Origin: Candidatus Woykebacteria bacterium
GTDB lineage: Bacteria; Patescibacteriota; Microgenomatia; Woykebacterales; RBG-16-39-9b
Direction of reading: 5' to 3'
Assembly: GCA_040876345.1 (NCBI GenBank)
Contig: JBBDPM010000004.1
Location: forward strand, 14,980 to 78,979
Length of the DNA stretch: 64,000 bases
In this document: piece by piece, positions 3,301 to 37,800 of the stretch
How the letters are laid out: every line of letters starts with the position of its first letter
Position numbering within the stretch: position 1 is the stretch's first letter
Made by a program: the position numbers and the translations under genes
The notes under the pieces: generated by a model
What the model saw: only the letters and a program-made list of their open reading frames with translations
Told to the model about the DNA's origin: nothing
Database searches by the model: none

Positions 3301-3320
3301 ATACGTGATCATAAAACTGC

Positions 3321-3408: not shown

Positions 3409-3434
3409 TAATCCACCCGAAAGGGGGTGAAGGC

Positions 3435-3767
3435 ATGAAAAAACTTATTGTATTACAGTCATTATTTGTAACCTCTCTGATTGTTGCCGCTCCGGCGTTT
3501 GCACAGAGCGCAGATGTGTCTAAAATCTCGAACTTTATCCAAAACATAATTACAATCTTAGTTACTCTCTCAGGATTTGTGGCAACAGGCTTTTTCGTCT
3601 GGGGAGGATTCAGCTACATTACCAGTACCGGAAACCCTGAATCACTGGATAGATCAAAAAAGACGATCTTCTATTCAGCAATCGGTTTGGCAATTGTACT
3701 TGGAGCATTTGTTATCAGTAATATTGTCACTCAGGTTGCAACTGGCGCGTTTGGCACAGGTAACTAA
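3435..3767 (+). CDS. Small secreted two-TM pilin-like protein (VirB2/TrbC-like topology)
   Basis: Start MKKLIVLQSL at 3435 with RBS AAAGGGGGTGAAGGC. Signal peptide ending AFA-QS, then a hydrophobic segment, GGFSYITSTGNPESL, and a second hydrophobic segment. Paralogous to the N-terminus of the next gene. Confidence 0.45.
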   Translation: MKKLIVLQSLFVTSLIVAAPAFAQSADVSKISNFIQNIITILVTLSGFVATGFFVWGGFSYITSTGNPESLDRSKKTIFYSAIGLAIVLGAFVISNIVTQVATGAFGTGN

Positions 3768-3792
3768 GGCAACTCTCTTAAGCCTAAATGTT

Positions 3793-5597: not shown

Positions 5598-6189
5598 GGT
5601 CAGCTCAAGGCGCCAAATTCAGATCAAAGAGGTCAAAAACGGCACTTTAGTTCTGCCAGACAATGAATACAGATTAATTATTGAAACCTCCTCAATAAAC
5701 TTCGAGCTTAAAAGTGAGGAGGAGCAGGATATTTTAATTGACAATTTCCAAAACTTTCTTAACTCGCTTCCCTGTGAGCTTCAAGTTCTGGTTCGGGTTC
5801 GTGAAGTCGATATCGACCGTTATTTGGAGGAAATCGGTAAGAGCAAAGCGACTGAGCGCGAGAAGGTTTATCGAGATCAAATCAAAAACTACTGTAGTTT
5901 TATTAAAAACTTGGTGGCCGGCAATAAAATTTTATCACGGCGTTTTTACGTGGTTATCCCTTATAAGAATTCTGACAAAAACAGAGAGTTTGCACTAATT
6001 GAGGAACAAATTAACTTGCAGAAAGATATTATCCTGAGAGGCCTGGAGAAGCTAGGAATGAAAGCCAGGGTTTTGGACAGCTTAGAGCTTCTCGACCTGT
6101 TCTACAGCTTCTACAGCCCTGCACAGGCCAAAACTCAGGAGCTTAAAGGCCACACCATCGAAGCCCTGCTGGAGAATCAATATGTTTAA
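5569..6189 (+). CDS. VirB4/TrbE-like N-terminal domain protein (split from the ATPase)
   Basis: RBS AAAGGAGG precedes the ATG at 5569. 206 aa. Ends within ATGTTTAA, overlapping the start of the next ORF, which is in the +1 frame. Confidence 0.55.
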   Translation: MLLLNKNKNRVSSRRQIQIKEVKNGTLVLPDNEYRLIIETSSINFELKSEEEQDILIDNFQNFLNSLPCELQVLVRVREVDIDRYLEEIGKSKATEREKVYRDQIKNYCSFIKNLVAGNKILSRRFYVVIPYKNSDKNREFALIEEQINLQKDIILRGLEKLGMKARVLDSLELLDLFYSFYSPAQAKTQELKGHTIEALLENQYV

Positions 6190-8032
6190 TACTCTTGAAA
6201 AGCTAAATGAAATATCAGCACCTTATCTTGAGAAGCTCAAGAAAGTTAACCGCCGTAAGCGAACTTCCAAGAAAGAACAGGTTAAAAGATCATTTCAATT
6301 TAACTTTGGGGAGCAAGATCAAATTGATTTAATTTCTTACTCCGGTCTTGAAGAAAACAGCACTTACCTTCAGGTTGATAATAAATTTGTTCGAACACTT
6401 TTTATTTCCGGCTTTCCTTATGTAGCCTCAACCGGCTGGCTAAACATGCTGATTAATTTCAATCACAACATTGATATTTCTTATCACATTGAACAGGTAG
6501 ATCCCATTTATGCCCTGCCTAAACTCAACCGGAAAATTACTGAACTTGAATCAACTAAACGAGCCATGCTCAAAGACGGCAAAGTCATAGGTTCGGAAAT
6601 AACTGATCCGCTCAAATCAGCCATAGAGCTTAAAGACAAAATTCAAAGAGGTCAGGAAAAACTCTTCCAAGTCTCAATTTATATGACCATCTCAGCTGAC
6701 AGCTTAGTTGAGCTAAATAAAACAACCACAATTTTGGAAACTGTTATGTCGACCCGACTTTTTTATATCAAAACCGCCACCTTTCAACAGTTAGAGGGAT
6801 TGCAATCCACATTGCCCCGAGCAGAAAACATCTTAAACCAAAGACGCAATCTGGACAGCTCTTCGGCGGCCTTAACTTTTCCCTTTGTTTCCTCAGAACT
6901 CGTGCAGGAGTCCGGAATACTTTATGGAATCAATAAATCGAATAATTCACTCGTAATTATTGATAGGTTCTCGCTAAATAACGCTAACAGTATTGTCTTT
7001 GCCCAATCCGGAAGTGGTAAAAGTTACACCGCTAAAGTGGAAATTCTCAGACAACTGATGCAAGGAACAAAAGTCATTGTAATTGATCCGGAACGTGAAT
7101 ATAAACAATTAGCGGCGTCAGTAAACGGAACCTATATCAAGTTATCAGCCAAATCCATAGAGAAAATAAACCCTTTTGACTTTTCTTTAAGTTCTTATGG
7201 TGCCGAAAACGATTTAGCGGAGCATATTCAGGATTTAACGGAAATTATTTCTCTCATCGTCGGGGGCTTAAATTCAGAGGAAAAAGCCATTGTTGATAAA
7301 GCAATCATCCAAACCTACAAACAACAAGGTTTCTCACTGAATTACACATATATTCCAAAAGAGAATAAAAGTACTCGAGGTCGAAAGCCAAAAGATAGAA
7401 CTTACCCGCTACTGAAAGACTTTTACCAAGTCTTAAAAGAAATGCGACAAAAAGACCTTTGTGATCGTTTGGAAAAGTTTGTCAACGGGTCACTCTCTTC
7501 GGTCTTTGATTCCCAGACTAATATTGAACTTAATAATAGGCTAGTTGTCTTTGACATCAAAGACTTAAATGAATCTCTGCGAGAAATAATGATGTTAGCG
7601 GTTGCAAACTTTGTTAATTCGCAAGTTAAATCAAGCCCGCAGAAACAAATTCTAGTAATTGATGAGGGCTGGTTACTCCTGGAACATGAAGAGAGCGCCA
7701 GATTCGTTTCGGCACTTGTGAGGCGAGCCAGAAAATATTACTTGGGGGTAACGATTATTTCCCAACAGGCAAATGATTTTCTAAACAGTGAATATGGTCG
7801 GGCGATTGCGTCCCAGTCGTCGCTTAGAATCTTAATGAGGCAAGACACAACCACGATTAAAAAGGTGGCTGAAGAGTTTAAATTAAGCGAGTATGAAGAA
7901 CAGTTTCTTTTAACCTGTGATCGTGGAGAGGCACTGATAATTTCCGATCAGAACCACGTTGCCCTAAAAGTTGTTGCCTCAGACAAGGAACATCCTCTCC
8001 TAACTACTGACCCCAGAGAGATCTACATTTAA
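6182..8032 (+). CDS. VirB4/TrbE/CagE-family T4SS ATPase (C-terminal ATPase part)
   Basis: Walker A in FAQSGSGKSYTAK and Walker B in ILVIDEGW; 616 aa. Confidence 0.85.
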   Translation: MFNTLEKLNEISAPYLEKLKKVNRRKRTSKKEQVKRSFQFNFGEQDQIDLISYSGLEENSTYLQVDNKFVRTLFISGFPYVASTGWLNMLINFNHNIDISYHIEQVDPIYALPKLNRKITELESTKRAMLKDGKVIGSEITDPLKSAIELKDKIQRGQEKLFQVSIYMTISADSLVELNKTTTILETVMSTRLFYIKTATFQQLEGLQSTLPRAENILNQRRNLDSSSAALTFPFVSSELVQESGILYGINKSNNSLVIIDRFSLNNANSIVFAQSGSGKSYTAKVEILRQLMQGTKVIVIDPEREYKQLAASVNGTYIKLSAKSIEKINPFDFSLSSYGAENDLAEHIQDLTEIISLIVGGLNSEEKAIVDKAIIQTYKQQGFSLNYTYIPKENKSTRGRKPKDRTYPLLKDFYQVLKEMRQKDLCDRLEKFVNGSLSSVFDSQTNIELNNRLVVFDIKDLNESLREIMMLAVANFVNSQVKSSPQKQILVIDEGWLLLEHEESARFVSALVRRARKYYLGVTIISQQANDFLNSEYGRAIASQSSLRILMRQDTTTIKKVAEEFKLSEYEEQFLLTCDRGEALIISDQNHVALKVVASDKEHPLLTTDPREIYI

Positions 8033-8036
8033 TCCA

Positions 8037-8669
8037 GTGTCTCCAAATCTTTCCGCGATTGCAGCAATTTGGTCTTTCCGTCGAGAACTAAAATTTGTTT
8101 TCTTCGCCTTTCTAATTACCTTACTTATTCCCGTGCTTGCCGTCATTTTAGTTGCCAATATCGGCTTGAGTGTAGTTTCCAATGCGCTGGCGACAATAAA
8201 CCTGCAGAACAACACTGTCGAAATCCATGATCCGAGAACCGGACAAATAGTCCAGGAGCTTAAAATAACCGCTGTCTGGCCGGTACACGGGATTGTGACC
8301 CTGGAATTCGGCGAAAGCAACTTTCCTTTCCAGGTTTTTCATACCGGAATAGACATAGCCAGTCCTACGAGACAAATTGGCGATCCAGTGACACCTTTTA
8401 TGGAAGGAACGGTAACTTTTGCCGGAGAAATTCCCCTGGGACTTGGAAAACACGTCATAATTGATCACGGAAATAATATTACTTCCTATTACGGTCACTT
8501 AAGTGCCATTTATGTAGTAAAGGGACAAAAAGTAAAACCGGGCGACATAATTGGGGCGGAAGGAGAAACCGGCTGGGCAACTGGTCCACACGTGCATTTT
8601 CAAATTAATGTCTATGGAATCCCAGTTAACCCAAGAACTTTTTTACAAGGCAACCCTTCTTTAAGGTGA
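8037..8669 (+). CDS. M23 family metallopeptidase (LytM-like) with N-terminal TM anchor
   Basis: HTGIDIA, GHLS and GPHVHFQ motifs. GTG start at 8037. Confidence 0.8.
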   Translation: MSPNLSAIAAIWSFRRELKFVFFAFLITLLIPVLAVILVANIGLSVVSNALATINLQNNTVEIHDPRTGQIVQELKITAVWPVHGIVTLEFGESNFPFQVFHTGIDIASPTRQIGDPVTPFMEGTVTFAGEIPLGLGKHVIIDHGNNITSYYGHLSAIYVVKGQKVKPGDIIGAEGETGWATGPHVHFQINVYGIPVNPRTFLQGNPSLR

Positions 8670-8708
8670 AATACAAACTATCTCTAAAGATTGTATAATG
8701 AGGAAAAT

Positions 8709-8915
8709 ATGAACTCTCAAGAACAGCTAGGTAAAAACTTAAAAAAAGCTAGACAAAAGTCTGGAATGACCCAGGCCACTGTGGCTGAAAAGGCCGAGGT
8801 ACATGTTAATTATTATGCTAGAATTGAAAGAGGTGAGGTAAACCCGTCGATTGAAATCTTGGAGAACATAGCCAAAGCTTTGAAAGTAAACTCTTCTGAA
8901 ATCTTACCTTTTTAA
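8709..8915 (+). CDS. XRE-family helix-turn-helix transcriptional regulator
   Basis: GMTQATVAEKAEVHVNYYARIERGE is an HTH_3 pattern. ATG at 8709 with RBS TGAGGA. Confidence 0.7.
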   Translation: MNSQEQLGKNLKKARQKSGMTQATVAEKAEVHVNYYARIERGEVNPSIEILENIAKALKVNSSEILPF

Positions 8916-9352
8916 ATAAATCTCTTGAGTTTCAGAAAATCAAACATTTGATTTACAGTTTCAGATCCTTCTATCCTTCTCATTATTTCGCGGCTGTGGT
9001 TTTGGGAAAAAATGTTAAGACTGCCTTCCCAGAGAACAGTTCTATCAAGTATGGCCAGCTTTCGATGGTGATTGCCCAGGCAAATTAGCACTTGAACTCC
9101 TACGACTTCAAATGCTCGTATTCCCGTCTCGGATTGTTGTTCGAGTTTGATCTCATGCTCCTTTGGATTTCTCGTAATGACGAACACCCTTACATTTTTG
9201 TTTAGCAATTTTTTAAGAATTGGTAAGAATAATTTCATTCTTTCGTTGGTTATATAAGGACTTTCAATAATTACTTCCTTTTGACAACTGACTAGGTCTT
9301 TTATAAAAGCTTGGTAAAAAGTTGTCTCATCAAAGAGTTGGGAGGAGAACAT
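8912..9352 (-). CDS. PLD-family (single HKD) nuclease, Nuc-like
   Basis: Perfect HxK(x4)D(x6)GSxN motif in HHRKLAILDRTVLWEGSLN. Start overlaps the stop of the recombinase gene (TAATG). Confidence 0.75.
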   Translation of the reverse strand: MFSSQLFDETTFYQAFIKDLVSCQKEVIIESPYITNERMKLFLPILKKLLNKNVRVFVITRNPKEHEIKLEQQSETGIRAFEVVGVQVLICLGNHHRKLAILDRTVLWEGSLNIFSQNHSREIMRRIEGSETVNQMFDFLKLKRFI

Positions 9353-10992
9353 TACTCTTCCTCCTCTTCCTTATGGTAAACTTCCATTAACTGACTCAGC
9401 CAGGCTAAAAGCGGTTCAAAAGAAAGTGCGGTTGGGTCACCATATGCTTTTTGTTCAGACAAAAAAGCTGGTTGGAGGGTATCGTAAGGTTGTTTTAGCC
9501 TCACATCCACAACTGTTTTGTTATCAATAACAAATTCCTCGATAAATGCATTGATAAACATTCTCTTAGTTGTGGGATCTGCGATTTTGTAGAGATCGTA
9601 ACAATTATTAAGTATACTTAGTGTTTTATCTAAAGCCCGAAGTCTCATCTTCTCGTCCTCTGTGGTTGATTGTCTATGTTGATTTAGAACAGCCGTTTGT
9701 CGATCGTACTCAACAATCTTTACTTCATAAATATCTTCCGGTATTCTCTTTTCCAAATGTTCCTCGACTAACCTTAACCGCTTTTCCAAAAGAGCCTTAT
9801 ACGCTTTATCAGCTGTTTCTTTTGTTAACCCGGACTGTTCTTTTACCTCCTGCTCAATTTGCTTAACCCGTATTGAAACTAAATTGTACATTGCCTTAGG
9901 AAGTTGAAGTCTCTTGAATATATTCTCAACCTTATCCTCGAGAATTGATGCTGACACCATTGGTTGGTCACAAAGCTCTCGACCGTTTCTAATTGAGCCA
10001 ATACATCTGTGATAGAGCCACTGACCTCTTTGTAAATCTCTTGTTAAACCACTTCCACACCTGAAACATTTTAACTTACTTGCCGTTAAGACAACATCTG
10101 CCGTATTAGTAGTTCTGGTCTTGGGTTTCTGTCTAAGTTTAAGAACCTCCTGAATTCTGTGCCAGGTTGGATCATTCCACATTGGTGGGTGCTCTCCTTT
10201 TGACTCCACAACCTCGTTCGTTTTTCGATCTTTAAATGTAACAAGCCCTGCGTAGAACTTACTTGAAAGTATTCTCCTCAAACCCTCAGTTCTAATAGGC
10301 CGCCCGTTGTGAGTTAGGTATCCTGAGTTGTTAAGCTCCTTGCATATTTGGTGAAGGGTAAACTGATCAGTAGAATAAAGTTTGCCTGCGTATTTAAGTG
10401 CATCAAATCTTTGTGGATCAATCTCAATCCAACTCTTTCTTCTCCCGTCCTCTAGCAGAATTCGTTTATTCAAGTATCCTTGCGGTGCAACAAACATCCA
10501 CTTGCCATCCTTTGTTCTCTGTTTCATACCTTTTACTACTTCTTGAGCTAGATTTCTTATATACCATTCATTAATCAAACTCATTTGTCTTCGAGCAAAC
10601 CAACCAGCAGGATTTGTGGGGTCAATGGGTTCTGAAGCACTAACAATAGACACCCCAATTTTATTCAAGTCTTTTTCATACTTCTGAAATTCAAAATCGT
10701 TTCTGAAAGCTCGATCGAACTTGTGAATGATTATATATTTGAAGAATCCTTGTTTAGCGTCATTAAGCAATTGGTTAAACTCTTCTCGGTTCTCAGCCAG
10801 CTTCCCACTTTCTAAATCGACATACTCTCTGTAGATTGGCAATTTTGGTGGTAGGATAAGGTTTTGGCCAAACTGAATGGCCTTGTAACAATTGTCGAGC
10901 TGAGCTGGTATCGAGACTTCTTTCTTTTGTCTTTCTTCATCACTCATTCGACAATAAATAGCTACTTTCTCTTCTGGTTCAATCTTTTTCAT
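9352..10992 (-). CDS. Large serine recombinase (integrase)
   Basis: N-terminal resolvase domain with VAIYCRMSDEE (catalytic Ser), then a recombinase domain and a Cys-rich zinc ribbon (CFRCGSGL...HRC). Start MKKIEPEE at 10992, preceded by GGAAGTGA. Confidence 0.85.
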   Translation of the reverse strand: MKKIEPEEKVAIYCRMSDEERQKKEVSIPAQLDNCYKAIQFGQNLILPPKLPIYREYVDLESGKLAENREEFNQLLNDAKQGFFKYIIIHKFDRAFRNDFEFQKYEKDLNKIGVSIVSASEPIDPTNPAGWFARRQMSLINEWYIRNLAQEVVKGMKQRTKDGKWMFVAPQGYLNKRILLEDGRRKSWIEIDPQRFDALKYAGKLYSTDQFTLHQICKELNNSGYLTHNGRPIRTEGLRRILSSKFYAGLVTFKDRKTNEVVESKGEHPPMWNDPTWHRIQEVLKLRQKPKTRTTNTADVVLTASKLKCFRCGSGLTRDLQRGQWLYHRCIGSIRNGRELCDQPMVSASILEDKVENIFKRLQLPKAMYNLVSIRVKQIEQEVKEQSGLTKETADKAYKALLEKRLRLVEEHLEKRIPEDIYEVKIVEYDRQTAVLNQHRQSTTEDEKMRLRALDKTLSILNNCYDLYKIADPTTKRMFINAFIEEFVIDNKTVVDVRLKQPYDTLQPAFLSEQKAYGDPTALSFEPLLAWLSQLMEVYHKEEEEE

Positions 10993-11167
10993 TATCACTT
11001 CCATTTTGTTCTGATAAATTTACAGTGTCAACCATACCTGCTTGTTCAGACAAATAGGTTCGGTCCTTATCAAATGCTTGCCAAACTGCCATAGAAAGCT
11101 CTTCAACTCTAAGTTGCCAGATCTTTAAGCATCCTCATTCTGTTCCCCAGTCTCTTTCCTAATAAGT

Positions 11168-16514: not shown

Positions 16515-16576
16515 CCCTGGATTATTCTCTCTAATCAGTGCTATAGGATTTTTGTGTCGAGATTCTGAGACACCCC

Positions 16577-16806
16577 TTTTTATAGGGTCTCATTTGTCTC
16601 ATTTAGCCTCCTGATGAGACAAGACCCTTGCGACTATAATCGTCCTCGATTTAGTCCACGAGGTGGTCGCAAAGCGCGAAGCGATCTACATCTCGCCGCT
16701 TGAAACTCTGCGAGTTATAATCGCAGATTACATCAGCTCTTGTAACACAAGAGTGTTATAGCGACTGAACTGACCGAGACCCCAATGCTTCACCATTGTT
16801 GTTTCC
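16577..16806. repeat. Intergenic repeat family, copy 1 (~230 bp), ends GGGTCTC...GAGACCC
   Basis: 5' block tttttataGGGTCTCATTTGTCTCA, internal ATTTAGCCTC, and 3' block AGCGACTGAACTGACCGAGACCCCAATGCTTCACCA are shared with copy 2. Contains an internal hairpin GGGTCTcattTGTCTCAT...ATGAGACAagaccc. Confidence 0.8.
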
Positions 16807-16875: not shown

Positions 16876-17286
16876 CTACGGTTTGCGAGAATCAGAGGTT
16901 GCACTACCAAAAGCTCTACCATCAGCTTTGGCAGCCTCTGGTTGAGAATCTGCAACACTATTAGCAAAGTCTGCATTGGAGTTTACCTCACTAACAGATT
17001 GTCCAAAAGTTTGACCATCTAACTTTGGTTCCTCAGGGGTTCTTTCCGAAACCCCAAGGTTTGCATTATCTTCTGCAGTTGTATTGTTGATAACAACATT
17101 TGAAGGCTCAGCTCCTGTTGGGTGGTTTTCCTTTACGTATTCGGAAACAGCAGAACCGGAAATTTTTGCTTCATCAGAAGGATTAGTATCTTTTGAAGCT
17201 GGAACAGACCCACTAACTGCAGCAGAAATACTAACTACAATGGCAAGAACGGCAGCAACAAAGGCTTCTATCATAAAATTAGTCAC
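16876..17286 (-). CDS. Hypothetical secreted low-complexity protein
   Basis: N-terminal TM/signal segment, then a Ser/Ala/Asn/Glu-rich region. Confidence 0.4.
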   Translation of the reverse strand: MTNFMIEAFVAAVLAIVVSISAAVSGSVPASKDTNPSDEAKISGSAVSEYVKENHPTGAEPSNVVINNTTAEDNANLGVSERTPEEPKLDGQTFGQSVSEVNSNADFANSVADSQPEAAKADGRAFGSATSDSRKP

Positions 17287-18605: not shown

Positions 18606-20162
18606 ATGGCGCACAATACACGTTTATCACTGACCGGATTAATGATTGCTTGTGCTCTCTATGGAGAATCTCTTCGTCCAGTTTTACTTCCCCTTAACAC
18701 AAACAGCCAAATTATTTTTAGTGGTATTGTGATTGCTATTGGTTATGAAATTGGTGTGCTACTTTCGGTGACAGCTCAAAAATTAGGGATTAGGAAGGTC
18801 GCGTTACAAAGAAGCCTTAAATATTTTATCGCCACCTTAGTTGTTTTAGTTGCGGGGTTTCTCTCATGGAGGGCTATGGACGCTCAACAGAGCTTTCGCG
18901 ACTTTTTAGTAATTGCGGCTCCTGCACCAAATTGGGTAGTAGTCTGGCTGGGATCTTTATTAGTAGCGGCATTGTTAGTTCATTTGGGTTTGCTAATACG
19001 AGCTTTTGCCAGGTGGTGTGGGAAAAAAGTGCAAACCTATCTTAACAAAAAATTTACCTACAATTTCACCTGGCTGCTAGTTGCTGGACTAGGGTATCTG
19101 CTGCTTATTTTATTGGTAGTTGTAATGCAAATATTAGTTGATATCAGTTCGCGAGCAAAGCCGAGGGAAACTTACCAGAAAAGCTCTACTTTTCTTAGCG
19201 GAGGCGAAGGGTCACTGATCTCTTGGGAGGGTTTGGGCCAAAACGGTAGGGAGTTTGTTTCTAGGGATATACAAGCTTTGATGCAGTCGATTATTGGGGA
19301 ACTTCCGCTAAAAACGATGAAACCGATCCGAATTTACGCAGGAATCGACAACGAGCCAGATTTGGAAAAGAGAGTAGATCTAGTGATGAGAGAGTTTGAG
19401 AGAACAAGGGCGTTTGAACGTTCGGTTGTGGTGATGTTTACCCCATCAGGTAGCGGTTGGGTAAACCCCGTGGGAGTTGAATCAGTTGAGTTTGTTACCA
19501 GGGGAGATTCCGCCTCGGTTTCATTGCAATATTCAAACAATCAGCCAATCTTGCAATACATAAGAGATCGCGGGATGCCCGCTAGAGCCAGCAATCTTCT
19601 GTTTTCTAAAATTCGTAGTCGTCTTAATCAGGTGCCAGAGGTAGCACGACCGAAGCTTTACGTTTACGGTGAAAGCTTAGGTTCTCTAGGTTCTCAAGAA
19701 ATGTTCCAGAATACCCCCCAAAGGAATCTAGTAAACGAAGTGGATGGCGCACTTTGGGTTGGTTCGCCTGCTTCCGGTCCACTTTGGTCGGCGTTTGGAC
19801 TTGCCGAGTTATACTCTGGTGGAGAAAGCTCTTTGGTTCGTGTCGAGCCTCACTCGAGAGACTTAACTAGCAATTTGAGTTCGTGGGGACCACCACGCTT
19901 GGCATTTCTCTTCAACTCCACCGACCCAATTGTTTGGTCTAACCCACTAGTTATTTATAAGTTCCCAAGATGGTTAAAAGAACCACGCTTTCCGGAAGTA
20001 AGTAAAGAAGCCCGTTGGTTACCATTACTCACCTTTGGACATATGTGGTTTGAACTATTCTCGGCCAAGAATTTACCCAGTGGTATTGGTCATAACTACG
20101 ATCAGGAAATTCCTTGTGCAATTGCAAATGTTGTACAACCTAGAATTGAGGAGATGTGCTAA
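18606..20162 (+). CDS. Membrane-bound alpha/beta hydrolase (Abhydrolase_9-like, N-terminal multi-TM domain)
   Basis: 4-5 N-terminal TM helices. GESLG nucleophile elbow in YVYGESLGSLGS. Confidence 0.6.
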   Translation: MAHNTRLSLTGLMIACALYGESLRPVLLPLNTNSQIIFSGIVIAIGYEIGVLLSVTAQKLGIRKVALQRSLKYFIATLVVLVAGFLSWRAMDAQQSFRDFLVIAAPAPNWVVVWLGSLLVAALLVHLGLLIRAFARWCGKKVQTYLNKKFTYNFTWLLVAGLGYLLLILLVVVMQILVDISSRAKPRETYQKSSTFLSGGEGSLISWEGLGQNGREFVSRDIQALMQSIIGELPLKTMKPIRIYAGIDNEPDLEKRVDLVMREFERTRAFERSVVVMFTPSGSGWVNPVGVESVEFVTRGDSASVSLQYSNNQPILQYIRDRGMPARASNLLFSKIRSRLNQVPEVARPKLYVYGESLGSLGSQEMFQNTPQRNLVNEVDGALWVGSPASGPLWSAFGLAELYSGGESSLVRVEPHSRDLTSNLSSWGPPRLAFLFNSTDPIVWSNPLVIYKFPRWLKEPRFPEVSKEARWLPLLTFGHMWFELFSAKNLPSGIGHNYDQEIPCAIANVVQPRIEEMC

Positions 20163-20234: not shown

Positions 20235-20453
20235 GATGCGAAACATATACAAAGAAACTACAAAAAGATCTTTGATGAAGCCAAAAAGACTAAAGAGCCC
20301 GTGTTTGTCATGAAGAACAATAAACCACAGGTCGCCATCATCGATGCAAAAAAGCTTGAAGAGATGGAAGCTATACTAGCTGTTCTGGAAAGTAGAGAAG
20401 AGGCTAGGGCTGGTAAGACAAAGGTTTTGCGATCTCTCAAAGATCTGTGTTAG
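20235..20453 (+). pseudogene. Phd/YefM-family antitoxin, apparently frameshifted at an A5 run
   Basis: The frame ending at TAG 20451-20453 reads ...AKHIQRNYKKIFDEAKKTKEPVFVMKNNKPQVAIIDAKKLEEMEAILAVLESREEARAGKTKVLRSLKDLC, which is Phd/YefM-like. The only upstream ATG (20236) is in another frame and reads MRNIYKETTKRS..., and the frames meet near caaaaag (20261-20267). Confidence 0.45.
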
Positions 20454-20690
20454 ATGAAGATCCACTACTCGTCAAAGTTTGCTAGAGAATACAAGAAGTT
20501 ACCAAATAGCGTTAAAGACATTGCTGAAAATAAAGAAGATATTCTTCGTCTTGATCCTTTTAACCCTCGGCTGAAGACTCACAAGTTAAAAGGAGAGTTG
20601 GCAGATTTTTATTCGTTTTCGATCACTTACCAGCTAAGGATAGTTTTTCACTTCGGTTGCTTGTTTTTACCCAATAAAAGTACAATATAA
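20454..20690 (+). CDS. RelE/ParE-family toxin, possibly C-terminally degenerate
   Basis: KLPNSVKDIAENKEDILRLDPFNPRLKTHKLKGELADFYSFSITYQLRIVF is a RelE/ParE pattern. The start overlaps the antitoxin stop (TAGATG). C-terminus is atypical. Confidence 0.6.
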   Translation: MKIHYSSKFAREYKKLPNSVKDIAENKEDILRLDPFNPRLKTHKLKGELADFYSFSITYQLRIVFHFGCLFLPNKSTI

Positions 20691-20694
20691 ATAG

Positions 20695-21471
20695 ATGTTT
20701 CCTTTTTCCAAGAAAACCGATTTTGGGTACTTGCGAAAATTCAACCTAATTATGGCTGCCTTGCACGCACTTCAAGGTATCGCCATTTTACTTCTTAGCA
20801 CAGACTTCAAGCTTCCAGTTACCGCTGGATATTTAACCTTTAATGCAGCCACTCAAGCTCTGGAACCGGCTAAAGAAACTTTGTTTGATCTTTCACTTGC
20901 TCCCCTTGTGGCTATCTTTTTCTTTCTTTCAGCTGCGGCTCACTTAACCATTGCCACGCTTTGGAGAAAAGGTTACGAGAATGATTTATCCAAAGGGATG
21001 AACAGAGCCCGTTGGTTTGAATACGCGCTATCAGCAAGTGTGATGATGGTGGCTATTGCTCTTTTAGTTGGAATCTACGAGGTTACCCAGCTGATCATGA
21101 TCTTTGCTTTGGTTGCTTTTATGAACCTGATGGGACTCTTGATGGAAGTATATAACCAAACTACCCAAAAGACTAATTGGCTCTCATTTATAATCGGCAG
21201 TTTTGCCGGGATTGTACCCTGGTTGGTCGTTGGCCTTTACTTCTGGGCCGCAGCGGCCTTTGGAGAAGGAGAGGTACCTACCTTTGTTTACTGGATTTAC
21301 GTATCAATCCTTATTTTCTTCAATTGCTTCGCAATAAATATGTACCTGCAATACAAGAAAGTTGGAAAATGGAGGGACTATATTTTTGGTGAAAAATCTT
21401 ATATAGTTCTGAGCCTGGTTGCAAAATCCGCTCTTGCTTGGCAAGTATTCGCTGGGACACTCCGACCGTAA
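20695..21471 (+). CDS. Heliorhodopsin
   Basis: 7-TM protein. The C-terminal helix EKSYIVLSLVAKSALAWQVF, and also LRKFN, RWFEYALSASVMM and FAGIVPW, match what I recall of heliorhodopsin 48C12, including the Schiff-base Lys in VAKS. Confidence 0.75.
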   Translation: MFPFSKKTDFGYLRKFNLIMAALHALQGIAILLLSTDFKLPVTAGYLTFNAATQALEPAKETLFDLSLAPLVAIFFFLSAAAHLTIATLWRKGYENDLSKGMNRARWFEYALSASVMMVAIALLVGIYEVTQLIMIFALVAFMNLMGLLMEVYNQTTQKTNWLSFIIGSFAGIVPWLVVGLYFWAAAAFGEGEVPTFVYWIYVSILIFFNCFAINMYLQYKKVGKWRDYIFGEKSYIVLSLVAKSALAWQVFAGTLRP

Positions 21472-21493
21472 AACTTGATATACTTAAAATACT

Positions 21494-22303
21494 ATGGATA
21501 AAACACCTGTAAATAAGCTATTAGATCTTTCCTCCAAGACTGCTGTGGTTACCGGTGCAGGTGTAGGAATTGGATTTGGGATAGCCAGCCGATTGGCTGA
21601 GGCTGGGGCAAACGTGGTAGTAGCTGATCTAAGTGAGGAGAGAGCTTCTGAGGCAGCAAGAAAGCTATCTGGTAACGGTTTTAAGGCGACAGCAATAGCA
21701 GTCGATGTTTCAAAAGAGGAAGATGTTCAGAAAATGGCAGATGAGTCTATAAAGCAGTTTGGCGGGATAGACATATTAGTAAACAACGCTGGTATTTACC
21801 CAAACATTTTAGTAATGAATATGACCCAGGAAGATTTTGATAAACTAATCGCTGTGAACCTGAGAAGTGTGTTCCTATGCACCAAAAAAGTCGCTGAGAA
21901 GATGATTGGCCAAGGAAAAGGTGGGAGAGTCATCAACATTACCTCCATTGACGCTCTTCACCCCTCGTCTGCCGGTCTTGCTCACTATGATGCTTCTAAA
22001 CACGGGGTTTGGGGTTTCACCAAGAACGTTGCGTTGGAACTGGCTCCACACAAAATCTGGGTAAACGCAGTGGCTCCAGGAGGCATTGCTACCCCGGGCG
22101 TGGAAGAAGTTCAGAAAAAGATGGAACTTCCCAAAGGAGTGGATATGAGTAAGCTCCTTGAAGCTTTTATGGCAAAAATCCCAATTAAGAGGATGGGAGA
22201 TCCAGATGACATTGGCAAAGCCGTACTCTTCTTGGCTTCAGATATGTCCTCCTATATGACTGGTTCCCAAATTGTGGTTGATGGCGGAGTTCTTCTTTCT
22301 TAA
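21494..22303 (+). CDS. SDR-family oxidoreductase (classical short-chain dehydrogenase)
   Basis: TGAGVGIGFG cofactor motif, NNAG, and the YxxxK pair in YDASKHG. Confidence 0.85.
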   Translation: MDKTPVNKLLDLSSKTAVVTGAGVGIGFGIASRLAEAGANVVVADLSEERASEAARKLSGNGFKATAIAVDVSKEEDVQKMADESIKQFGGIDILVNNAGIYPNILVMNMTQEDFDKLIAVNLRSVFLCTKKVAEKMIGQGKGGRVINITSIDALHPSSAGLAHYDASKHGVWGFTKNVALELAPHKIWVNAVAPGGIATPGVEEVQKKMELPKGVDMSKLLEAFMAKIPIKRMGDPDDIGKAVLFLASDMSSYMTGSQIVVDGGVLLS

Positions 22304-22324
22304 ACCTTAATTTTAGACATTCAC

Positions 22325-22452
22325 TTTTTATACTGTCTCATTTGTCTCACTTCGGTATCCTCGGTGTAAACACTTCGACTTCACTCAGTACAAGCATTTA
22401 GCCTCTAAGCGATTGAACTGACCGAGACCCCAATGCTTCACCAAATTTGTTT
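22325..22452. repeat. Intergenic repeat family, copy 2 (~128 bp)
   Basis: Shares both terminal blocks and the ATTTAGCCTC box with copy 1, in the same orientation. Confidence 0.8.
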
Positions 22453-22524: not shown

Positions 22525-22776
22525 ATGGCTATATACATTGCAAACGAGGCTCATGAGGAAGGCGAACATGAAAATAAAGTAAAGGAAGTAGAAAGTTTTC
22601 GATCACCATTGAAGGAGGTAACTTTTTACGCCAGCTGTTCTACTGGTGGTCCACACCGCTCTTTTATCATAGTTCACGCCGACTCATTGGACGAGGCAAA
22701 ATCTGGTGTCCCTGAAGGTTTTAGAGAAAATTTAGTTGAAGTCGAAGAAATGGACTGGGGTCCAGCACCAGAGTAG
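22525..22776 (+). CDS. Hypothetical small acidic protein
   Basis: ORF only. No clear RBS. Confidence 0.25.
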   Translation: MAIYIANEAHEEGEHENKVKEVESFRSPLKEVTFYASCSTGGPHRSFIIVHADSLDEAKSGVPEGFRENLVEVEEMDWGPAPE

Positions 22777-22777: not shown

Positions 22778-23299
22778 TTATCCTTTTTCAAGCCATTCAA
22801 AAAATTCAGTTTCGTAGCCAATAATTGTCCACTTATAATTCTTTTTAGTGAGTAATGTATCTTTTACCTCCGAGATTGGTAACAATTTAAGTTCCTCCAC
22901 CTCGTCTTTATCAAATTTAATTTTTGAAATGTCCCCGTACCAAAGTATTTTAAAAATAGATTGAAATTCTTTATGATCCCTATCTTTGAATATTTTAAAA
23001 AGTGTAAGGTCCTTTTTCCTAACGCTAAGGCCAAGTTCTTCATTAACTTCTTGAACAGCTGACTCCAAATATTCTTGGTTGGGTTTTAGATGCCCTCCGA
23101 AAAAAGGCTCCCAAAATCCGGGGTTACTATCTTTCTTCAGGGATCTTTTTTGACAAAGGATTTCGTCGCGGGAGTTTATTATCCAAACGTGCGAATTACG
23201 ATGCCATAAGCCTTTGGAATGAGCCTCATCTCTTGGTCTTGACTCAATGGGATTATTATTTTCATCCACGACAAATATCTCTTCTTTTTTGTTTAACAC
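22778..23299 (-). CDS. NUDIX hydrolase
   Basis: Nudix box GGHLKPNQEYLESAVQEVNEELGL. Confidence 0.8.
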   Translation of the reverse strand: MLNKKEEIFVVDENNNPIESRPRDEAHSKGLWHRNSHVWIINSRDEILCQKRSLKKDSNPGFWEPFFGGHLKPNQEYLESAVQEVNEELGLSVRKKDLTLFKIFKDRDHKEFQSIFKILWYGDISKIKFDKDEVEELKLLPISEVKDTLLTKKNYKWTIIGYETEFFEWLEKG

Positions 23300-34459: not shown

Positions 34460-35077
34460 TTAGTGGTACTTTCTTATGACTCCAACTACCTTGCCTTGAA
34501 TTTTAACGTTCCTAGTAAGGATAGGATTCATTGAGGAATTTGCTGGCTCAAGACGCACGTGATCAATTTCTCTAAAATATCTTTTTAAAGTAGCAAATGA
34601 GTCGTTTAGCAAAGCTACAACAATATCTCCGTTTTGCGCATCTTCCTGTTGCTCAATTACTACGAAGTCACCATCCAAAATTGCTGCTTCCACCATGGAG
34701 TTTCCTTTGACTTGGAGAACATAGCAGCGCTTATTACCAACCATGTCTGGTGGAATCATTACCGAGGAGGTGTGATCCTCAATTGCTTCTATTGGAGAGC
34801 CAGCTGCAATTCTGCCTACCAATGGGAGCTCGACTGCCGATGGTACCCAGCCAATCGCTCTTTGATCCACTACTTCAATTCCGCGGCGTACCCCATCTGT
34901 TTTTTTAAGCACCCCCTTAGCCATTAAGTTTTGGATGTGCTCGTGCACAGTAGCGGGAGAGCGAAGGCCCAGACCATCACAAATTTCGGCCAAAGTTGGG
35001 GCATAGCCATGCTTTTGCATAAACTGCGAAACAAATTGTAGTAAGTCTCTTTGTCGTTTGTAAATTACTGGGGCCAT
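34460..35077 (-). CDS. lexA: LexA repressor
   Basis: N-terminal winged HTH, C-terminal S24 peptidase with GNSM and the catalytic Ser/Lys region. Confidence 0.9.
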   Translation of the reverse strand: MAPVIYKRQRDLLQFVSQFMQKHGYAPTLAEICDGLGLRSPATVHEHIQNLMAKGVLKKTDGVRRGIEVVDQRAIGWVPSAVELPLVGRIAAGSPIEAIEDHTSSVMIPPDMVGNKRCYVLQVKGNSMVEAAILDGDFVVIEQQEDAQNGDIVVALLNDSFATLKRYFREIDHVRLEPANSSMNPILTRNVKIQGKVVGVIRKYH

Positions 35078-35269: not shown

Positions 35270-35700
35270 AATTGCGGGTTTTCCTAGTTCGTGTAGGGAA
35301 GCAGGCCCACCACCTTAACTTCCCGCCTGCAATGACCTGGACCGCTCCAAAGCCTCCCTGCCGAGGAGCGGACAGAGAGATCTCAGAGCGAAAGCTCTGT
35401 TTTCTTGTAGAGCGCCAAATTAGCGCTCACAACTAATTTTGTGGATCTGGGTCACGCCCTTCCCGTACACCAGTGTGGCCTGGGGAAGCGTGCAGGAGTT
35501 TGTCGGCCTGTGGCCTACTCCTGCCACGAAATTTCCATGGAAAGCGCTAACCACGCGCCATCCATTTAGGCTGTCTTCTGGTCTCGTGTGCTGGTACGTC
35601 CCTCCTCCAGGACGAACACCGCACGCGGGAATCAGAATGATCGCTACGGGCCCAAGTTGAGCGCTCCTCACCGAGAATCTCTTGGGCCCTAACCCTTTAG
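35270..35700 (+). ncRNA. Candidate structured ncRNA or long structured leader of unknown class (GC-rich island)
   Basis: About 430 nt, much more GC-rich than its surroundings. Only short overlapping ORFs on both strands. Many local hairpins: gcaggc/gcctgc, ccgctcc/ggagcgg, cagagc-GAAA-gctctg, gagcgc/gcgctc, and a 9 bp closing-type helix GGGCCCAAG...CTTGGGCCC at the 3' end. Lies downstream of the promoter above. Confidence 0.4.
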
Positions 35701-35775
35701 GTTATTCACTTTTCCTAGAATGCTTATTACTCGAGGTCTTTAATACTTCAACTTCTTAAGTTAGAATCTAGATTT

Positions 35776-37800
35776 ATGAACAAGTTTAAACTAAAGTCCC
35801 CCTGGCCGCCGACGGGTGATCAACCAGTGGCGATAGAAAAGCTAGTCAAGGGGCTTCAGGAGGGCTTTAAACACCAAGTTTTGCTGGGCGCCACTGGGAC
35901 CGGTAAGACTTTTACCATGGCCAATGTTGTGGCCCAGATTAACAAACCAACTCTGTTAATCGCTCATAATAAGACTTTAGCAGCCCAACTTGCTTCTGAG
36001 TTTCGTGAATTTTTCCCCGAAAATGCTGTCGAATATTTTGTAAGCTATTACGATTACTACCAACCAGAAGCGTATGTCCCGCAGATTGACTTATACATCG
36101 AAAAAGACGCCGATATTAATGAAGAAATAGATAGGCTTAGACTGGCAGCTACAAAAGCTTTAATGACTAGAAGTGATGTCCTAATCGTTGCATCAGTTTC
36201 TTGTATTTACAATATTGGCTCGCCAGAGGCTTACAAAGAGAGCGTTTTAACGCTTTTCAAAGGCCAAAAAATCTTGGTTAAAGAAATCTTGGCAAGGCTC
36301 GTAGAAATCCAGTACGAGAGAAATGATCTTGATCTGAAAAGGGGAAAATTTAGAGTGAAGGGGGACACGGTGGAAATTTACCCTGCCTATGAGGAGTTTG
36401 TGGTAAGAGTAAGTTTCCTTGGAGATTCGATTGAGAAGATTGAAAAGCTAGACCCGACAAGCTTCGATAATCAAGAAGCTCTTGAAGAGATAGTTGTTTT
36501 CCCAGCCCGCCATTACGTAATGCCTCGTCAAAACCTCGAAGATCCACTTTCTCAAATTAGAAATGATCTTGATGGCAGACTAAAATATCTAAAAAAAGAA
36601 AACAGGGTAGTTGAAGCAAAAAGACTGGAAGCCCGCACCAAATTTGACCTTGAACAACTTGAGCAGCTCGGTTTTGTAAAGGGAATAGAGAATTATTCAC
36701 GCTATTTTGACGGTCGTGAGGCTGGAGAACCACCATACACCCTGATTGATTATTTTCCCAAGGACTATCTTTTAATTATTGATGAATCCCACATGAGTGT
36801 GCCGCAAATAAAGGCGATGTGGCACGGGGAACGAGCTCGAAAGAATGTCCTGATTGATAACGGCTTTAGACTACCTAGTGCAATGGATAACCGGCCTTTA
36901 ACTTTTGAAGAATTTTCCCGGAAAGTAAATCAAGTGGTTTACACTTCTGCGACCCCAAGCGTCTATGAAACTTCTCTTGCGGAGAGAGTTGTTGAACAAG
37001 TAATAAGGCCGACTGGTATTGTTGATCCCCAGATTGAGGTAAGAAAAACAAAGGGACAAATTCAGGATTTGATTGAGGAAATACAAAAACGAGTTAAAAA
37101 GGGTCAACGAGTCTTAGTTACCACGCTAACGAAACACATGGCTGAGGACCTTACTGAGTTTTTAGCTGAACGCGAGATAAAAGTGATGTACATTCACTAC
37201 CAAGTGGATACTTTGCAAAGAATAGACATCCTGCGGGATTTAAGAAAGGGAATTTATGACGTACTGGTCGGAATAAATCTACTTCGAGAAGGATTGGACC
37301 TTCCCGAAGTTTCCTTGGTCGCAATACTAGATGCCGATAAAGAAGGTTTCTTGCGGTCTCAAACGAGTTTGATTCAAACAACTGGCAGAGCTGCCCGTCA
37401 CATTGAGGGTAGAGTGATAATGTATGCCGATAACATCACTGGCTCCATGAAAGCGGCAATTGCGGAGACTAATCGTCGGCGCAACGTTCAAATCTCGTAT
37501 AACAAAAAGCACAATATCACACCTGCCACAATTCAGAAAGCGATTCATGATATTGGTGAGAGGCTAGCTGAACTTCAGCCAGAAGTAACAACGGTCGAAG
37601 AGCTTGATTTCACTAAGATTCCTAAAACTGAAATAAAAAGGTTGTCGAAAGATTTGGAATCTGAGATGAAGCTAGCTGCCGAAAACCTCGAGTTCGAGCG
37701 CGCAGCCTTACTTCGTGATCAATTTTTAGAGCTAAAAAACCAAAATTTGGTAATTCCCAAAACAATAACAACTAAAGAAGCAAGAAAAATTAAAATGTAG
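35776..37800 (+). CDS. uvrB: Excinuclease ABC subunit B
   Basis: GATGTGKT helicase motif I, beta-hairpin region, C-terminal UVR domain. Confidence 0.95.

Follow-up and report, generated by a model that had tools for sequence, protein, structure and literature searches.

Genes and features of the locus

The window analysed here is a 64,000-nucleotide stretch of a contig from a Candidatus Woykebacteria bacterium. It contains a heliorhodopsin (HeR) gene that is followed on the same strand, after a 22-bp gap, by the gene of a classical SDR oxidoreductase (Table 1). An earlier note on this DNA described these two co-directional genes and their spacing, and the coordinates of both open reading frames (ORFs) agree with it. 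The note also stated that the window holds no retinal-synthesis gene. Indeed, neither blh/BCD nor genes of phytoene synthase, phytoene desaturase or lycopene cyclase were found among approximately 60 ORFs across the 64 kb (Pfam scans and precomputed calls).

Table 1. Genes and sequence features around the heliorhodopsin gene (window coordinates)
Feature	Position	Strand	Evidence and remarks
Element copy 1	16576..16804	+	Repeat search: D1 (45 nt, 91%), D2 (29 nt, 90%); alignment
Alpha/beta hydrolase, membrane-anchored	18606..20162	+	Abhydrolase_9_N and Abhydrolase_9, Pfam E 3.9e-75 and 2e-23
Antitoxin, weakly Phd/YefM-like	20301/20310-20453	+	Pfam E 0.0067, below gathering score
Toxin, YafQ/RelE-like	20454-20690	+	Pfam E 2.2e-4, below gathering score
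TACAAT, -10-like hexamer of HeR	20681..20686	+	Starts 14 nt before ATG; sequence
HeR gene	20695..21471	+	258 aa, ATG start; PF18761, NF038020, PDB alignments
HeR-SDR spacer	21472..21493	+	22 bp; sequence
TATACT, -10-like hexamer of SDR	21479-21484	+	Starts 15 nt before ATG
Classical SDR oxidoreductase	21494..22303	+	269 aa, ATG start; Pfam adh_short, adh_short_C2
Element copy 2	22324..22452	+	Alignments to L170 and L182; repeat families D1, D2
orf83, small acidic protein	22525..22776	+	No Pfam or NCBIfam match; downstream of element copy 2
NUDIX gene	22778-23299	-	

Immediately upstream of the HeR gene lies a toxin-antitoxin pair that is absent from all related HeR loci. The end of the toxin ORF and the HeR ATG are 4 bp apart. 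This toxin is probably truncated because its match covers only positions 1-64 of the 88 in the profile. Further upstream, 533 bp from the HeR gene, a 518-aa alpha/beta hydrolase is encoded. We rejected it as a HeR partner, as the toxin-antitoxin pair intervenes and no homologue was detected in 160 HeR loci (tblastn, E ≤ 1e-5). Nor does it correspond to the published "alpha/beta hydrolase" partner of heliorhodopsins, from which it differs in kind (518 aa, Abhydrolase_9).

Downstream of the SDR gene, orf83 is followed by a NUDIX gene on the opposite strand. The NUDIX gene was considered as an isopentenyl-diphosphate isomerase, which might have tied the locus to isoprenoids, and rejected (60.4 bits against a cut-off of 127). 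The residue that we take to be the catalytic Cys of E. coli IDI is replaced in it by Gly (FFGGH). Weak NUDIX homologues (25-31% identity) occur upstream of HeR at three related loci (L007, L099 and L100). Genes of DegV, DUF2177 and DUF1295 proteins are absent from the ORFs scanned across the window, and no other window gene within 12 kb on either side recurs near HeR in relatives.

The heliorhodopsin

The identification of the 258-aa protein as a heliorhodopsin, proposed in the earlier note, is confirmed by profile searches and structure-based alignments, with a match far beyond chance. It covers the whole Pfam profile PF18761 (positions 1-242 of 242; E 1.9e-99, 332.4 bits, cut-off 26.7) and scores 345.5 bits against the NCBIfam heliorhodopsin equivalog NF038020 (cut-off 100). 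The best match among solved structures is TaHeR (6is6, E 1.3e-84), and 48C12 (6su3) also matches, with E 2e-54. NCBI already holds a 100% identical protein under the name "heliorhodopsin HeR".

We aligned the protein with TaHeR and 48C12 residue by residue. The SLVAKSALAWQ segment, which the note had recognized, occupies residues 240-250. Within its SLVAK part (the SxxxK motif of helix 7), S240 and K244 align with S237 and K241 of 48C12, and K244 matches the Schiff-base Lys in both 48C12 and TaHeR; the absence of this Lys would have spoken against a heliorhodopsin. In the alignment with 48C12, E109 takes the counterion position in helix 3 (E107 in 48C12), and H24 and H83 align to the His23/His80 pair. 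E109, S240, K244 and H83 are invariant among 25 homologues, and H24 is at least 90% conserved. Thus all five functional positions of 48C12 (His23, His80, Glu107, Ser237 and Lys241) are conserved here.

The window HeR aligns over its full length with 48C12 and with TaHeR of Thermoplasmatales archaeon SG8-52-1 (PDB 6is6/7u55) and is of the same length class. Also identical is the C-terminal helix (SLVAKSALAWQVFAGTLRP). The loop at residues 187-191 is longer by 5 residues than in TaHeR. Unlike those two proteins, the window HeR comes from a CPR bacterium (Woykebacteria). Given the end-to-end homology to solved HeR structures, we expect the inverted membrane topology, with a cytoplasmic N-terminus. 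SLVAK is the commonest form of the motif, and heliorhodopsins are frequent in CPR (PMC9166423). A search for phage-borne heliorhodopsins returned none; two plasmid-borne cases were found, neither with an SDR.

The SDR oxidoreductase

The second gene encodes a classical SDR (adh_short_C2, E 2e-66; adh_short, E 8e-59, 198.8 bits). It contains the cofactor motifs TGAGVGIG (residues 20-27) and NNAG (97-100) and the catalytic set N122/S151/Y165/K169; in an alignment of 10 family members both the motifs and the set are invariant. D45, at the end of strand beta-2, is the residue typical of NAD preference. The only NCBIfam cut-off that the protein passes is that of a broad "glucose 1-dehydrogenase" subfamily (254 bits, cut-off 215), and no equivalog is passed.

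At least 120 homologues were found. Those among the matches listed are all 69-100% identical to the window protein, and those that carry an organism name are all from CPR. NCBI already holds the window protein too, named as an SDR. Judged by these matches, the SDR is a member of a tight family that shows strong conservation and a wide distribution in CPR. A foreign origin of the gene was considered on composition and rejected, as its GC and GC3 are inside the range of the genome.

Among solved structures, the SDR resembles FabG, glucose 1-dehydrogenase and KduD-type enzymes (PDB 4jro, 2hq1, 2uvd) and DHRS4 (3o4r), with E from 1e-51 to 1e-45 and a length of about 250-270 aa. It shares with them the TGxxxGxG and NNAG motifs and the N-S-Y-K set. 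Unlike the FabG, glucose 1-dehydrogenase and KduD types, it sits in a tight CPR-wide family.

FabG 4jro is the best PDB match (E 1.6e-51), and several FabG models give 210-246 bits. These scores raise the alternative that the earlier note had set against its own proposal, namely that the gene is the ordinary FabG (3-oxoacyl-ACP reductase) of fatty-acid synthesis in this genome. We consider this extremely unlikely. The SDR is below the cut-offs of all NCBIfam FabG equivalogs (NF004198, 245.9 vs 296; TIGR01830, 230 vs 297.75; NF004202, 227.3 vs 333). FabG uses NADPH, whereas Asp45 of the SDR, by the rules of SDR classification, points to NAD(H). The ORFs scanned in the window include no fab or acp genes; to our knowledge, type II fatty-acid synthesis is generally missing from CPR bacteria.

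The note had also suggested, as a speculation, that the SDR is a retinoid-processing partner of the heliorhodopsin. Known retinol dehydrogenases are SDRs, and the enzyme might produce all-trans retinal for HeR from scavenged retinol or another retinoid. The lack of retinal-synthesis genes among the ORFs scanned in the 64-kb window agrees with this, as does D45, since NAD preference would suit alcohol oxidation. One of the PDB matches is DHRS4, a mammalian retinal reductase (3o4r, E 3.6e-45). However, it ranks ninth, behind FabG- and glucose-dehydrogenase-type chains, and 271 SDR structures match the protein at E ≤ 1e-30. Therefore these matches carry no specific retinoid signal: hundreds of other SDRs are at least as close to the protein as retinoid SDRs are. 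The best curated family is the "glucose 1-dehydrogenase" subfamily, and the listed homologues are the uniform CPR set described above. Chromophore import by CPR bacteria with rhodopsins would also fit the proposal: rhodopsin-bearing Saccharibacteria lack blh and are likely to take up retinal (PMC9296517). In the same study, TaHeR was fast in binding retinal supplied from outside. Taken with the genomic context presented below, a retinoid role is not supported; nothing indicates one, and we regard it as very unlikely.

Adjacency of HeR and SDR genes in related genomes

The SDR was used as a tblastn query against 160 HeR loci (52-76% identical), of which 132 have at least 850 bp downstream, and afterwards against those of seven closer relatives. 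An orthologous SDR adjoins HeR in one of approximately 137 related loci with readable downstream sequence. This is the saccharibacterial locus L029, and it is the only such case among the 132 informative distant loci, where about 0.1 would be expected by chance; the difference is not significant. Any SDR-like match within approximately 6 kb of HeR was found in 3 of the 160 loci.

The gene order in L029 is DUF2177 (minus strand), DUF1295, HeR, SDR; the last three genes are separated by 15 and 1 nt. The SDR belongs to the same family as that of the window, and its Shine-Dalgarno sequence lies inside the 3' end of the HeR gene. A comparison of the window and L029 SDRs revealed no residues that stood out as marks of HeR-linked copies. 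L029 represents the DegV/DUF2177/DUF1295 neighbourhood of heliorhodopsins described by Chazan et al. (10.1101/2021.02.16.431466); the scanned ORFs of the window include none of these genes.

None of the seven closer relatives with readable context has an SDR next to HeR. Downstream of HeR are PDDEXK_1 in L163 (79% HeR identity), YjbQ in L164 (76%), a small ORF and then HD_4 in L171 (78%), and a small ORF and then Fic in L172 (76%). No SDR was found at the HeR locus of L001, another member of Woykebacteria (76%).

The closest relatives by HeR are L170 (85-86% identical, depending on the method) and L182 (84%). They are sisters (89% aa identity), and the window branches outside both. In both loci the HeR stop codon is followed after 0-3 nt by CTTTT(T)ATA...GTCTCATTTGTCTCA...GCTTCACCA. 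This is the same element that follows the SDR stop codon in the window (copy 2), and in L170 an orf83-like start comes after it too. As the element abuts the HeR stop in L170 and L182 and follows the SDR in the window, the SDR segment of approximately 850 bp is an indel. Its left junction lies in the 22-bp spacer: immediately beyond TATACT, the sequence is no longer homologous to L170 and L182. By parsimony alone, the indel is most simply read as a gain in the window lineage rather than a loss in the ancestor of L170 and L182. The SDR thus looks like a recent, lineage-specific neighbour of HeR.

Orthologues of the SDR were also located in five other CPR genomes (84, 77, 76, 70 and 71% identity). 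They are in unrelated contexts (HTH_20/DHO_dh, Cupin_2/MFS, DUF1801/glyoxalase, TrmB/surface protein), and no HeR was found near them. These orthologues adjoin detoxification-type genes (AHSA1, DUF1801, glyoxalase, cupin, MFS) and not rhodopsins. All of this speaks against the retinoid proposal of the earlier note: the linkage is not conserved, the closest heliorhodopsins manage without an adjacent SDR, and the SDR is unlinked from HeR in relatives.

Transcription signals

The HeR gene has no Shine-Dalgarno sequence. Its -10-like hexamer TACAAT lies within the final part of the toxin-like ORF upstream. We regard it as a putative promoter of the leaderless type; HeR genes of close relatives are arranged likewise (TACAAT in L001, TAGAAT in L163). 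The SDR gene also lacks a Shine-Dalgarno sequence and has a -10-like TATACT in the spacer.

In the window, 12 of 53 genes have a hexamer that matches TATAAT at 5-6 of 6 positions, starts at -17 to -13 and is not accompanied by a Shine-Dalgarno sequence, while about 2.8 would be expected from the background. Both HeR (-14) and SDR (-15) belong to this class. Operon-internal ATP-synthase and T4SS genes of the window have GGAG at -10 to -14 instead. By these signals, the SDR gene would open a separate leaderless-type unit with its own putative promoter and would not be an operon-internal gene. Co-transcription by read-through from HeR is possible, given the common direction, the short distance of 22 bp and a gap in which no terminator-like hairpin was found.

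A non-coding element flanking the heliorhodopsin gene

A conserved unclassified non-coding element of approximately 100-230 nt flanks HeR in the three closest genomes. The window has two copies, which bracket a 5.7-kb block of orf333, the Abhydrolase_9 gene, the toxin-antitoxin pair, HeR and SDR. Copy 2 has the layout CTTTTTATAC-TGTCTCA-TT-TGTCTCA ... AGCGATTGAACTGACCGAGACC ... GCTTCACCA. Copy 1 contains an extra hairpin-rich insert of approximately 145 nt and folds with -75.8 kcal/mol against -49.7 for shuffled sequences (z = -6.0). In all, five or six copies of the element were collected from the related loci and the window; the element has a GTCTCAY/RTGAGAC hairpin.

Rfam has no entry that matches the element, whether the gathering score or E ≤ 10 is applied, and viral contigs gave no match either; nhmmer over 1.4 Mb of loci gave nothing significant beyond the known copies. 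Two candidate identities were rejected: inspection of core-site motifs gives no support for an integron attC site, and ARAGORN gives none for a tRNA-like end. The TGTCTCA-repeat element could be a new regulatory RNA or an operator that controls HeR expression.

Discussion

The presence of heliorhodopsins in CPR is already known and published, so the judgement of the earlier note that the locus is interesting rather than new was fair. Also known are SDRs as occasional HeR neighbours (PMC11109279). HeR-SDR operons were reported for Rhodococcus spp., Nocardioides dokdonensis, Thermococcus sp. 2319x1 and Chloroflexi isolate bacterium MO-CFX2 (Cho et al. 2024, PMC11109279, Supplementary Data 6). 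In the actinobacterial cases there is a 4-nt overlap between the two genes, and many Rhodococcus strains retain the pair. In contrast, the window has a 22-bp gap and a -10 box of the SDR's own, and its closest relatives lack the pair.

Three proven partners of heliorhodopsins are encoded by adjacent genes: glutamine synthetase for AbHeR (PMC9529153), photolyase for TfHeR (PMC9769723) and the OmrDE ABC transporter for OcHeR (PMC11109279). An adjacent-gene partner is the best-supported general mechanism for prokaryotic heliorhodopsins, and the window protein belongs to the same family as these three. However, no glutamine synthetase, photolyase or ABC exporter gene adjoins it, and its SDR neighbour is not conserved in the way that supported the three proven pairs.

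By analogy with these systems, HeR and SDR might form a functional pair, in which light-activated HeR would bind the SDR via its cytoplasmic loops and modulate its redox reaction. The common strand, the short gap and the lack of a terminator in it are consistent with such a pair. So is L029, where a member of the same SDR family forms an independent operon with HeR that is much tighter; together with the published operons, repeated origin could mean a real functional link. Nevertheless we consider the pair unlikely. The pairing is missing in all seven readable closer relatives and is an indel relative to the two closest, its single distant occurrence is not significant, and in five other CPR genomes the SDR family is located away from HeR. 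The SDR gene of the window comes with a -10 box of its own but without the Shine-Dalgarno sequence that operon-internal genes typically have here. Besides, SDR neighbours are not specific to heliorhodopsins, as SDR-domain genes are equally frequent beside DTE proton-pump rhodopsins (bioRxiv 10.1101/2021.02.16.431466).

The reading that we prefer, and hold to be probable, is that an ordinary, intact heliorhodopsin and an NAD(H)-type SDR of a CPR family are most likely adjacent incidentally. It follows from the SDR indel, the absence of SDR at other close heliorhodopsins, the position of the orthologues away from HeR, and the promoter signature of the SDR gene. Given incidental adjacency and the SDR's own putative promoter, the two genes are probably expressed and used independently. 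The heliorhodopsin is of the TaHeR-like type common in CPR bacteria. Judging from characterised heliorhodopsins, it would bind all-trans retinal taken up from outside; according to the literature, genes for retinal synthesis are generally missing from CPR genomes, as they are from the ORFs scanned in the window. With a slow photocycle, the protein would sense light and influence a partner protein, without ion pumping. The SDR is predicted to be a functional NAD(H)-type classical enzyme.

A more far-reaching idea is that the several independent origins of HeR-SDR neighbourhoods reflect a selective advantage, either of a light-gated NAD-dependent oxidoreductase or of a redox step on lipids or retinoids that is tied to HeR and accompanied by the DUF1295 reductase-like protein of L029. 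We find it decidedly unlikely, and we are just as doubtful about the separate idea that the flanking element is a regulator of HeR.

In view of the evidence against a HeR-SDR link, what remains is mainly a further annotated heliorhodopsin from CPR. If the SDR truly served HeR, it would give the first biochemical handle on chromophore supply or recycling in retinal-auxotrophic CPR, and also a handle on what most heliorhodopsins do. Two results keep some value: sister lineages that offer a clean natural comparison of the same heliorhodopsin beside an inserted SDR and without one, and a conserved non-coding element next to the heliorhodopsin gene, which may bear on its regulation.

Heliorhodopsin gene and retinal supply

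An earlier note described a heliorhodopsin (HeR) gene followed by a gene of a short-chain dehydrogenase/reductase (SDR). Both ORFs were confirmed with exact coordinates and 22 bp between them (see the table of coordinates). The first ORF matches the whole Pfam profile PF18761 (E 1.9e-99) and the heliorhodopsin equivalog of NCBIfam (345.5 bits, cut-off 100); its best matches among solved structures are TaHeR (6is6, E 1.3e-84) and 48C12 (6su3, E 2e-54). Residues H24, H83, E109, S240, and K244 align with H23, H80, E107, S237, and K241 of 48C12. The counterion Glu and the His residues, which the note proposed to check, are thus in place, as is the Schiff-base Lys (K244). E109, S240, and K244 are invariant among the 25 homologues compared. 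Judging by these alignments, the first ORF is a heliorhodopsin beyond reasonable doubt. It is real, intact, and ordinary for the candidate phyla radiation (CPR). Proteins 100% identical to the HeR and to the SDR, from a Candidatus Woykebacteria MAG, are already present in NCBI, and the finding is covered by existing annotation and literature.

Neither Pfam scans of the window ORFs nor the calls precomputed for the central 20 kb revealed any carotenoid or retinal genes, in agreement with the note. This fits the published picture of CPR (PMC9166423, PMC9296517). Chiriac et al. described 98 HeRs in 86 CPR genomes, SLVAK being the commonest motif (PMC9166423). Jaffe et al. argue that rhodopsin-bearing Saccharibacteria, which lack blh, import retinal, and report that TaHeR quickly binds external retinal (PMC9296517). 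A NUDIX protein encoded near the HeR gene weakly resembles isopentenyl-diphosphate isomerase (IDI)/YfcD (60 bits, cut-off 127) and appears to lack the IDI catalytic Cys. Three other loci encode distant homologues (25-31% identity) at a distance of 1-2 kb, upstream of HeR; such proximity is probably due to chance.

Coordinates of features in the window and in other heliorhodopsin loci (L-numbers)
Feature	Location	Strand	Remark
HeR ORF	20695..21471	+	258 aa
SDR ORF	21494..22303	+	269 aa
Element, copy 1	16576-16804	+	hairpin-rich insert of ~145 nt
Element, copy 2	22324-22452	+	follows SDR stop
Element in L170	2052-2152		directly follows HeR
Element in L182	880-1012		directly follows HeR
Toxin-antitoxin pair	20301-20690		abuts HeR
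Called ORF	16876-17286	-	132-136 aa
orf83	22525-22776	+	small ORF
NUDIX protein	22778-23299	-
NUDIX homologue, L007	4901-5329
NUDIX homologue, L099	391-768
NUDIX homologue, L100	3813-4109
Conjugative/integrative-element-like region	1-11004		ends ~5.5 kb before element copy 1
DUF3800-V RNA	2480-2576		Rfam, 64.5 bits
Large serine recombinase	9352-11004	-
lexA	34460-35077	-
GC-rich non-coding stretch	~35270-35740	+	~470 nt
uvrB	35776-37800	+
HeR-SDR gene group, L029	4159-6944
HeR, L173	4146-4922		lone gene

Adjacency of HeR and SDR genes in other genomes

We collected 160 HeR loci, 80 from species-representative genomes and 80 from metagenomes, most of them belonging to CPR; their HeRs are 52-76% identical to that of the window, and in 132 of the loci the sequence extends 850 bp or more beyond HeR on the downstream side. 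According to tblastn against all 160 loci, an SDR gene lies directly downstream only in L029, a Saccharibacteria MAG, where its product is 60% identical to the SDR of the window. SDR-like matches of any kind within ~6 kb of HeR were found in three of the 160 loci. Closer HeR relatives were reached through exact-protein look-ups. HeR is followed by PDDEXK_1 in L163 (79% HeR identity), by a small ORF and then HD_4 in L171 (78%), by YjbQ in L164 (76%), and by a small ORF and then Fic in L172 (76%); L001, also from Woykebacteria (76%), has no SDR within 6 kb. The adjacency is likewise absent in the two closest relatives, L170 and L182.

The best argument for HeR and SDR being a functional pair is L029 itself. 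Its genes DUF2177 (on the minus strand), DUF1295, HeR, and SDR, with gaps of 15 and 1 nt and a Shine-Dalgarno (SD) sequence inside the 3' end of HeR, include a genuine HeR-SDR operon. However, a single case among 132 loci does not differ significantly from the ~0.1 that chance would give. L029 represents the DUF2177/DUF1295 type of HeR neighbourhood of Chazan et al., supplemented with the CPR SDR family of the window; its DUF1295 protein is weakly similar to steroid 5-alpha-reductases and ICMT. Chazan et al. list DegV, DUF2177, and DUF1295 as neighbours distinguishing HeRs, and found "enoyl-ACP reductase" genes (the Pfam name of the SDR domain adh_short_C2) near HeRs and equally near proton pumps (10.1101/2021.02.16.431466). 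According to Supplementary Data 6 of Cho et al., helR overlaps the SDR gene that follows it by 4 nt in many strains of Rhodococcus and in Nocardioides dokdonensis; in Thermococcus sp. 2319x1 the gap is 56 nt, and in bacterium MO-CFX2 the SDR gene lies upstream of helR (PMC11109279).

No other gene of the window is syntenic with HeR in any of the HeR loci compared. Immediate HeR neighbours form 207 clusters, 167 of them singletons, so HeR behaves like a free-standing gene whose neighbours change. Direct evidence that it moves as a single-gene unit comes from L173, a mobilizable 10.5-kb plasmid of Lactococcus petauri (NZ_CP141705.1), where HeR lies alone between an IS6 transposase and a recombinase. 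A Chloroflexota plasmid (CP069395.1, L174) also carries HeR. The commonest immediate neighbour in CPR-type loci is a ~168-aa family without Pfam match (motif ..WFQWYCRYYLGRR..), found in nine loci (L002, 14 bp downstream of HeR; L033, L054, L053, L043, L007, L100, L152, and L153), often on the HeR strand and 1-17 bp away. Other recurrent neighbours are tRNA U5-methyltransferase (6 loci), a second family of 160-179 aa without Pfam match (6), VKOR (4), and sortase (4).

The SDR segment as an indel

The HeRs of L170 (85-86% identity, depending on the method) and L182 (84%) group as sisters (89% aa identity), to the exclusion of the window. In both loci a non-coding element, CTTTT(T)ATA...GTCTCATTTGTCTCA...GCTTCACCA, comes 0-3 nt after the stop codon of HeR. 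The same element occurs in the window right after the SDR stop. Comparing window positions 21472-22334 with L170 2049-2075 and L182 876-950, we found that homology stops just after TATACT (21479-21484) and restarts at TATACT (22329-22334). The SDR segment is therefore an indel of ~850 bp (9 nt, the SDR ORF, and 20-odd nt), edged by a short near-repeat, CTTGATATACT / CTTTTTATACT. Since SDR is missing in more distant relatives, the simplest scenario is that the window lineage gained it; alternatively, it may have been lost in the ancestor of L170 and L182. Whichever the direction, the HeRs closest to that of the window function with no SDR gene beside them, and this comparison settles the adjacency question.

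The 22-bp gap between the two genes contains no terminator-like hairpin. A hexamer matching TATAAT at 5-6 positions begins 13-17 nt before the start codon in 12 of the 53 window genes (~2.8 expected from the upstream background), at exactly -14 in six of them. Among the 53 gene starts that define this pattern are those at 12415, 14049, 15651, 17438, 20695, 21494, 23347, 31851, and 35776. The 12 genes have no SD, and operon-internal genes for ATP synthase and type IV secretion have GGAG at -10 to -14 instead. The pattern suggests that first genes of units in this genome have leaderless mRNAs. As HeR (TACAAT at -14) and SDR (TATACT at -15, no SD) both follow it, each appears to have its own leaderless-type promoter.

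The non-coding element and other features of the window

The element consists of CTTTTTATAC, TGTCTCA-TT-TGTCTCA, a hairpin GTCTCAY...RTGAGAC, and AGCGATTGAACTGACCGAGACC..GCTTCACCA. Its two direct copies bracket a 5.7-kb block of orf333, Abhydrolase_9, the toxin-antitoxin pair, HeR, and SDR. A related promoter-like module, CCTTTTTATA[CG][TC]GTCTC, is found ~60 nt upstream of HeR in both L170 and L182, so that HeR is flanked on both sides there. The blocks of the element are 90-100% identical between genomes, and the HeR DNA of the same genomes is 78-79% identical. The hairpin has one compensatory change between L182 and L170, and the fold of copy 1 is far more stable than those of shuffled sequences (z = -6.0). 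Related TGTCTCA-TT-TGTCTCR motifs, all on the HeR strand, flank HeR in L027 (516, 2009) and lie upstream of it in L009 (273) and L061 (3300). Neither Rfam nor viral sequences gave a match to the element, and 1.4 Mb of loci yielded no significant copies beyond these. It may act as an operator-promoter or a small RNA, or be a scar of recombination. The called ORF downstream of copy 1 has a GC3 of 0.226 (genome mean 0.380, sd 0.044) and no family match; it is unlikely to be a gene, and without it ~630 nt after copy 1 would be unannotated.

The toxin-antitoxin pair is weakly Phd/YefM-YafQ/RelE-like, and the match of the toxin ends at position 64 of the 88-position profile. Since the last ~30 nt of the toxin resemble the sequence just upstream of orf83, ..AATATAAATA[GC]ATG (repeat family D3), the HeR promoter region has apparently overwritten its 3' end. 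The conjugative/integrative-element-like region encodes an EcoRI-type methylase, T5orf172, DUF3800 accompanied by a DUF3800-V RNA, TrbC/T4SS pilins, TrbL-like and PrgI-like proteins, TraC/VirB4-like and TraG P-loop proteins, an M23 peptidase, a PLD nuclease, and the large serine recombinase. The GC-rich stretch between lexA and uvrB, preceded by TTGACG..TATATAAT, has a folding energy of -195 kcal/mol, compared with -151 kcal/mol for shuffled sequences (z = -7.2), and Rfam gave no match to it with E <= 10; it is a candidate large structured RNA.

The SDR family and the role of the heliorhodopsin

The SDR is classical (TGAGVGIG, NNAG, catalytic N122/S151/Y165/K169); Asp45 at the end of the second strand would, by SDR rules, indicate NAD(H) preference. 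It clears only the cut-off of the broad NCBIfam subfamily "glucose 1-dehydrogenase". All FabG equivalogs of NCBIfam fail. As many as 271 SDRs in the PDB match with E <= 1e-30; the retinoid SDR DHRS4 is just one of these, and FabG-type chains rank above it. We therefore rejected both the FabG of this genome, the alternative named in the note, and a recognisable retinoid enzyme. All 120 listed homologues are 69-100% identical to the SDR, including proteins of Woykebacteria, Peregrinibacteria, Kerfeldbacteria, Roizmanbacteria, Daviesbacteria, and Minisyncoccia; this conservation across CPR is unusually high. None of the five distinct orthologue contexts that we read contains HeR: the neighbours are an ArsR-type regulator and dihydroorotate dehydrogenase (77% orthologue), a cupin and an MFS transporter (76%), TrmB and a giant surface protein (71%), and DUF1801 and glyoxalases (70%), while the 84% orthologue is readable upstream only (a small ORF), a run of N following it.

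The suggestion that the SDR is a retinoid-processing partner is thus not supported, as the adjacency is not conserved and the PDB comparison gave no specific retinoid signal. A CPR oxidoreductase of the housekeeping type, the SDR came to lie, or stayed, beside HeR in the window lineage only. By analogy with characterised HeRs (PMC9529153, PMC9769723, PMC11109279), the heliorhodopsin itself most likely scavenges retinal and serves as a light sensor, which would modulate a partner.
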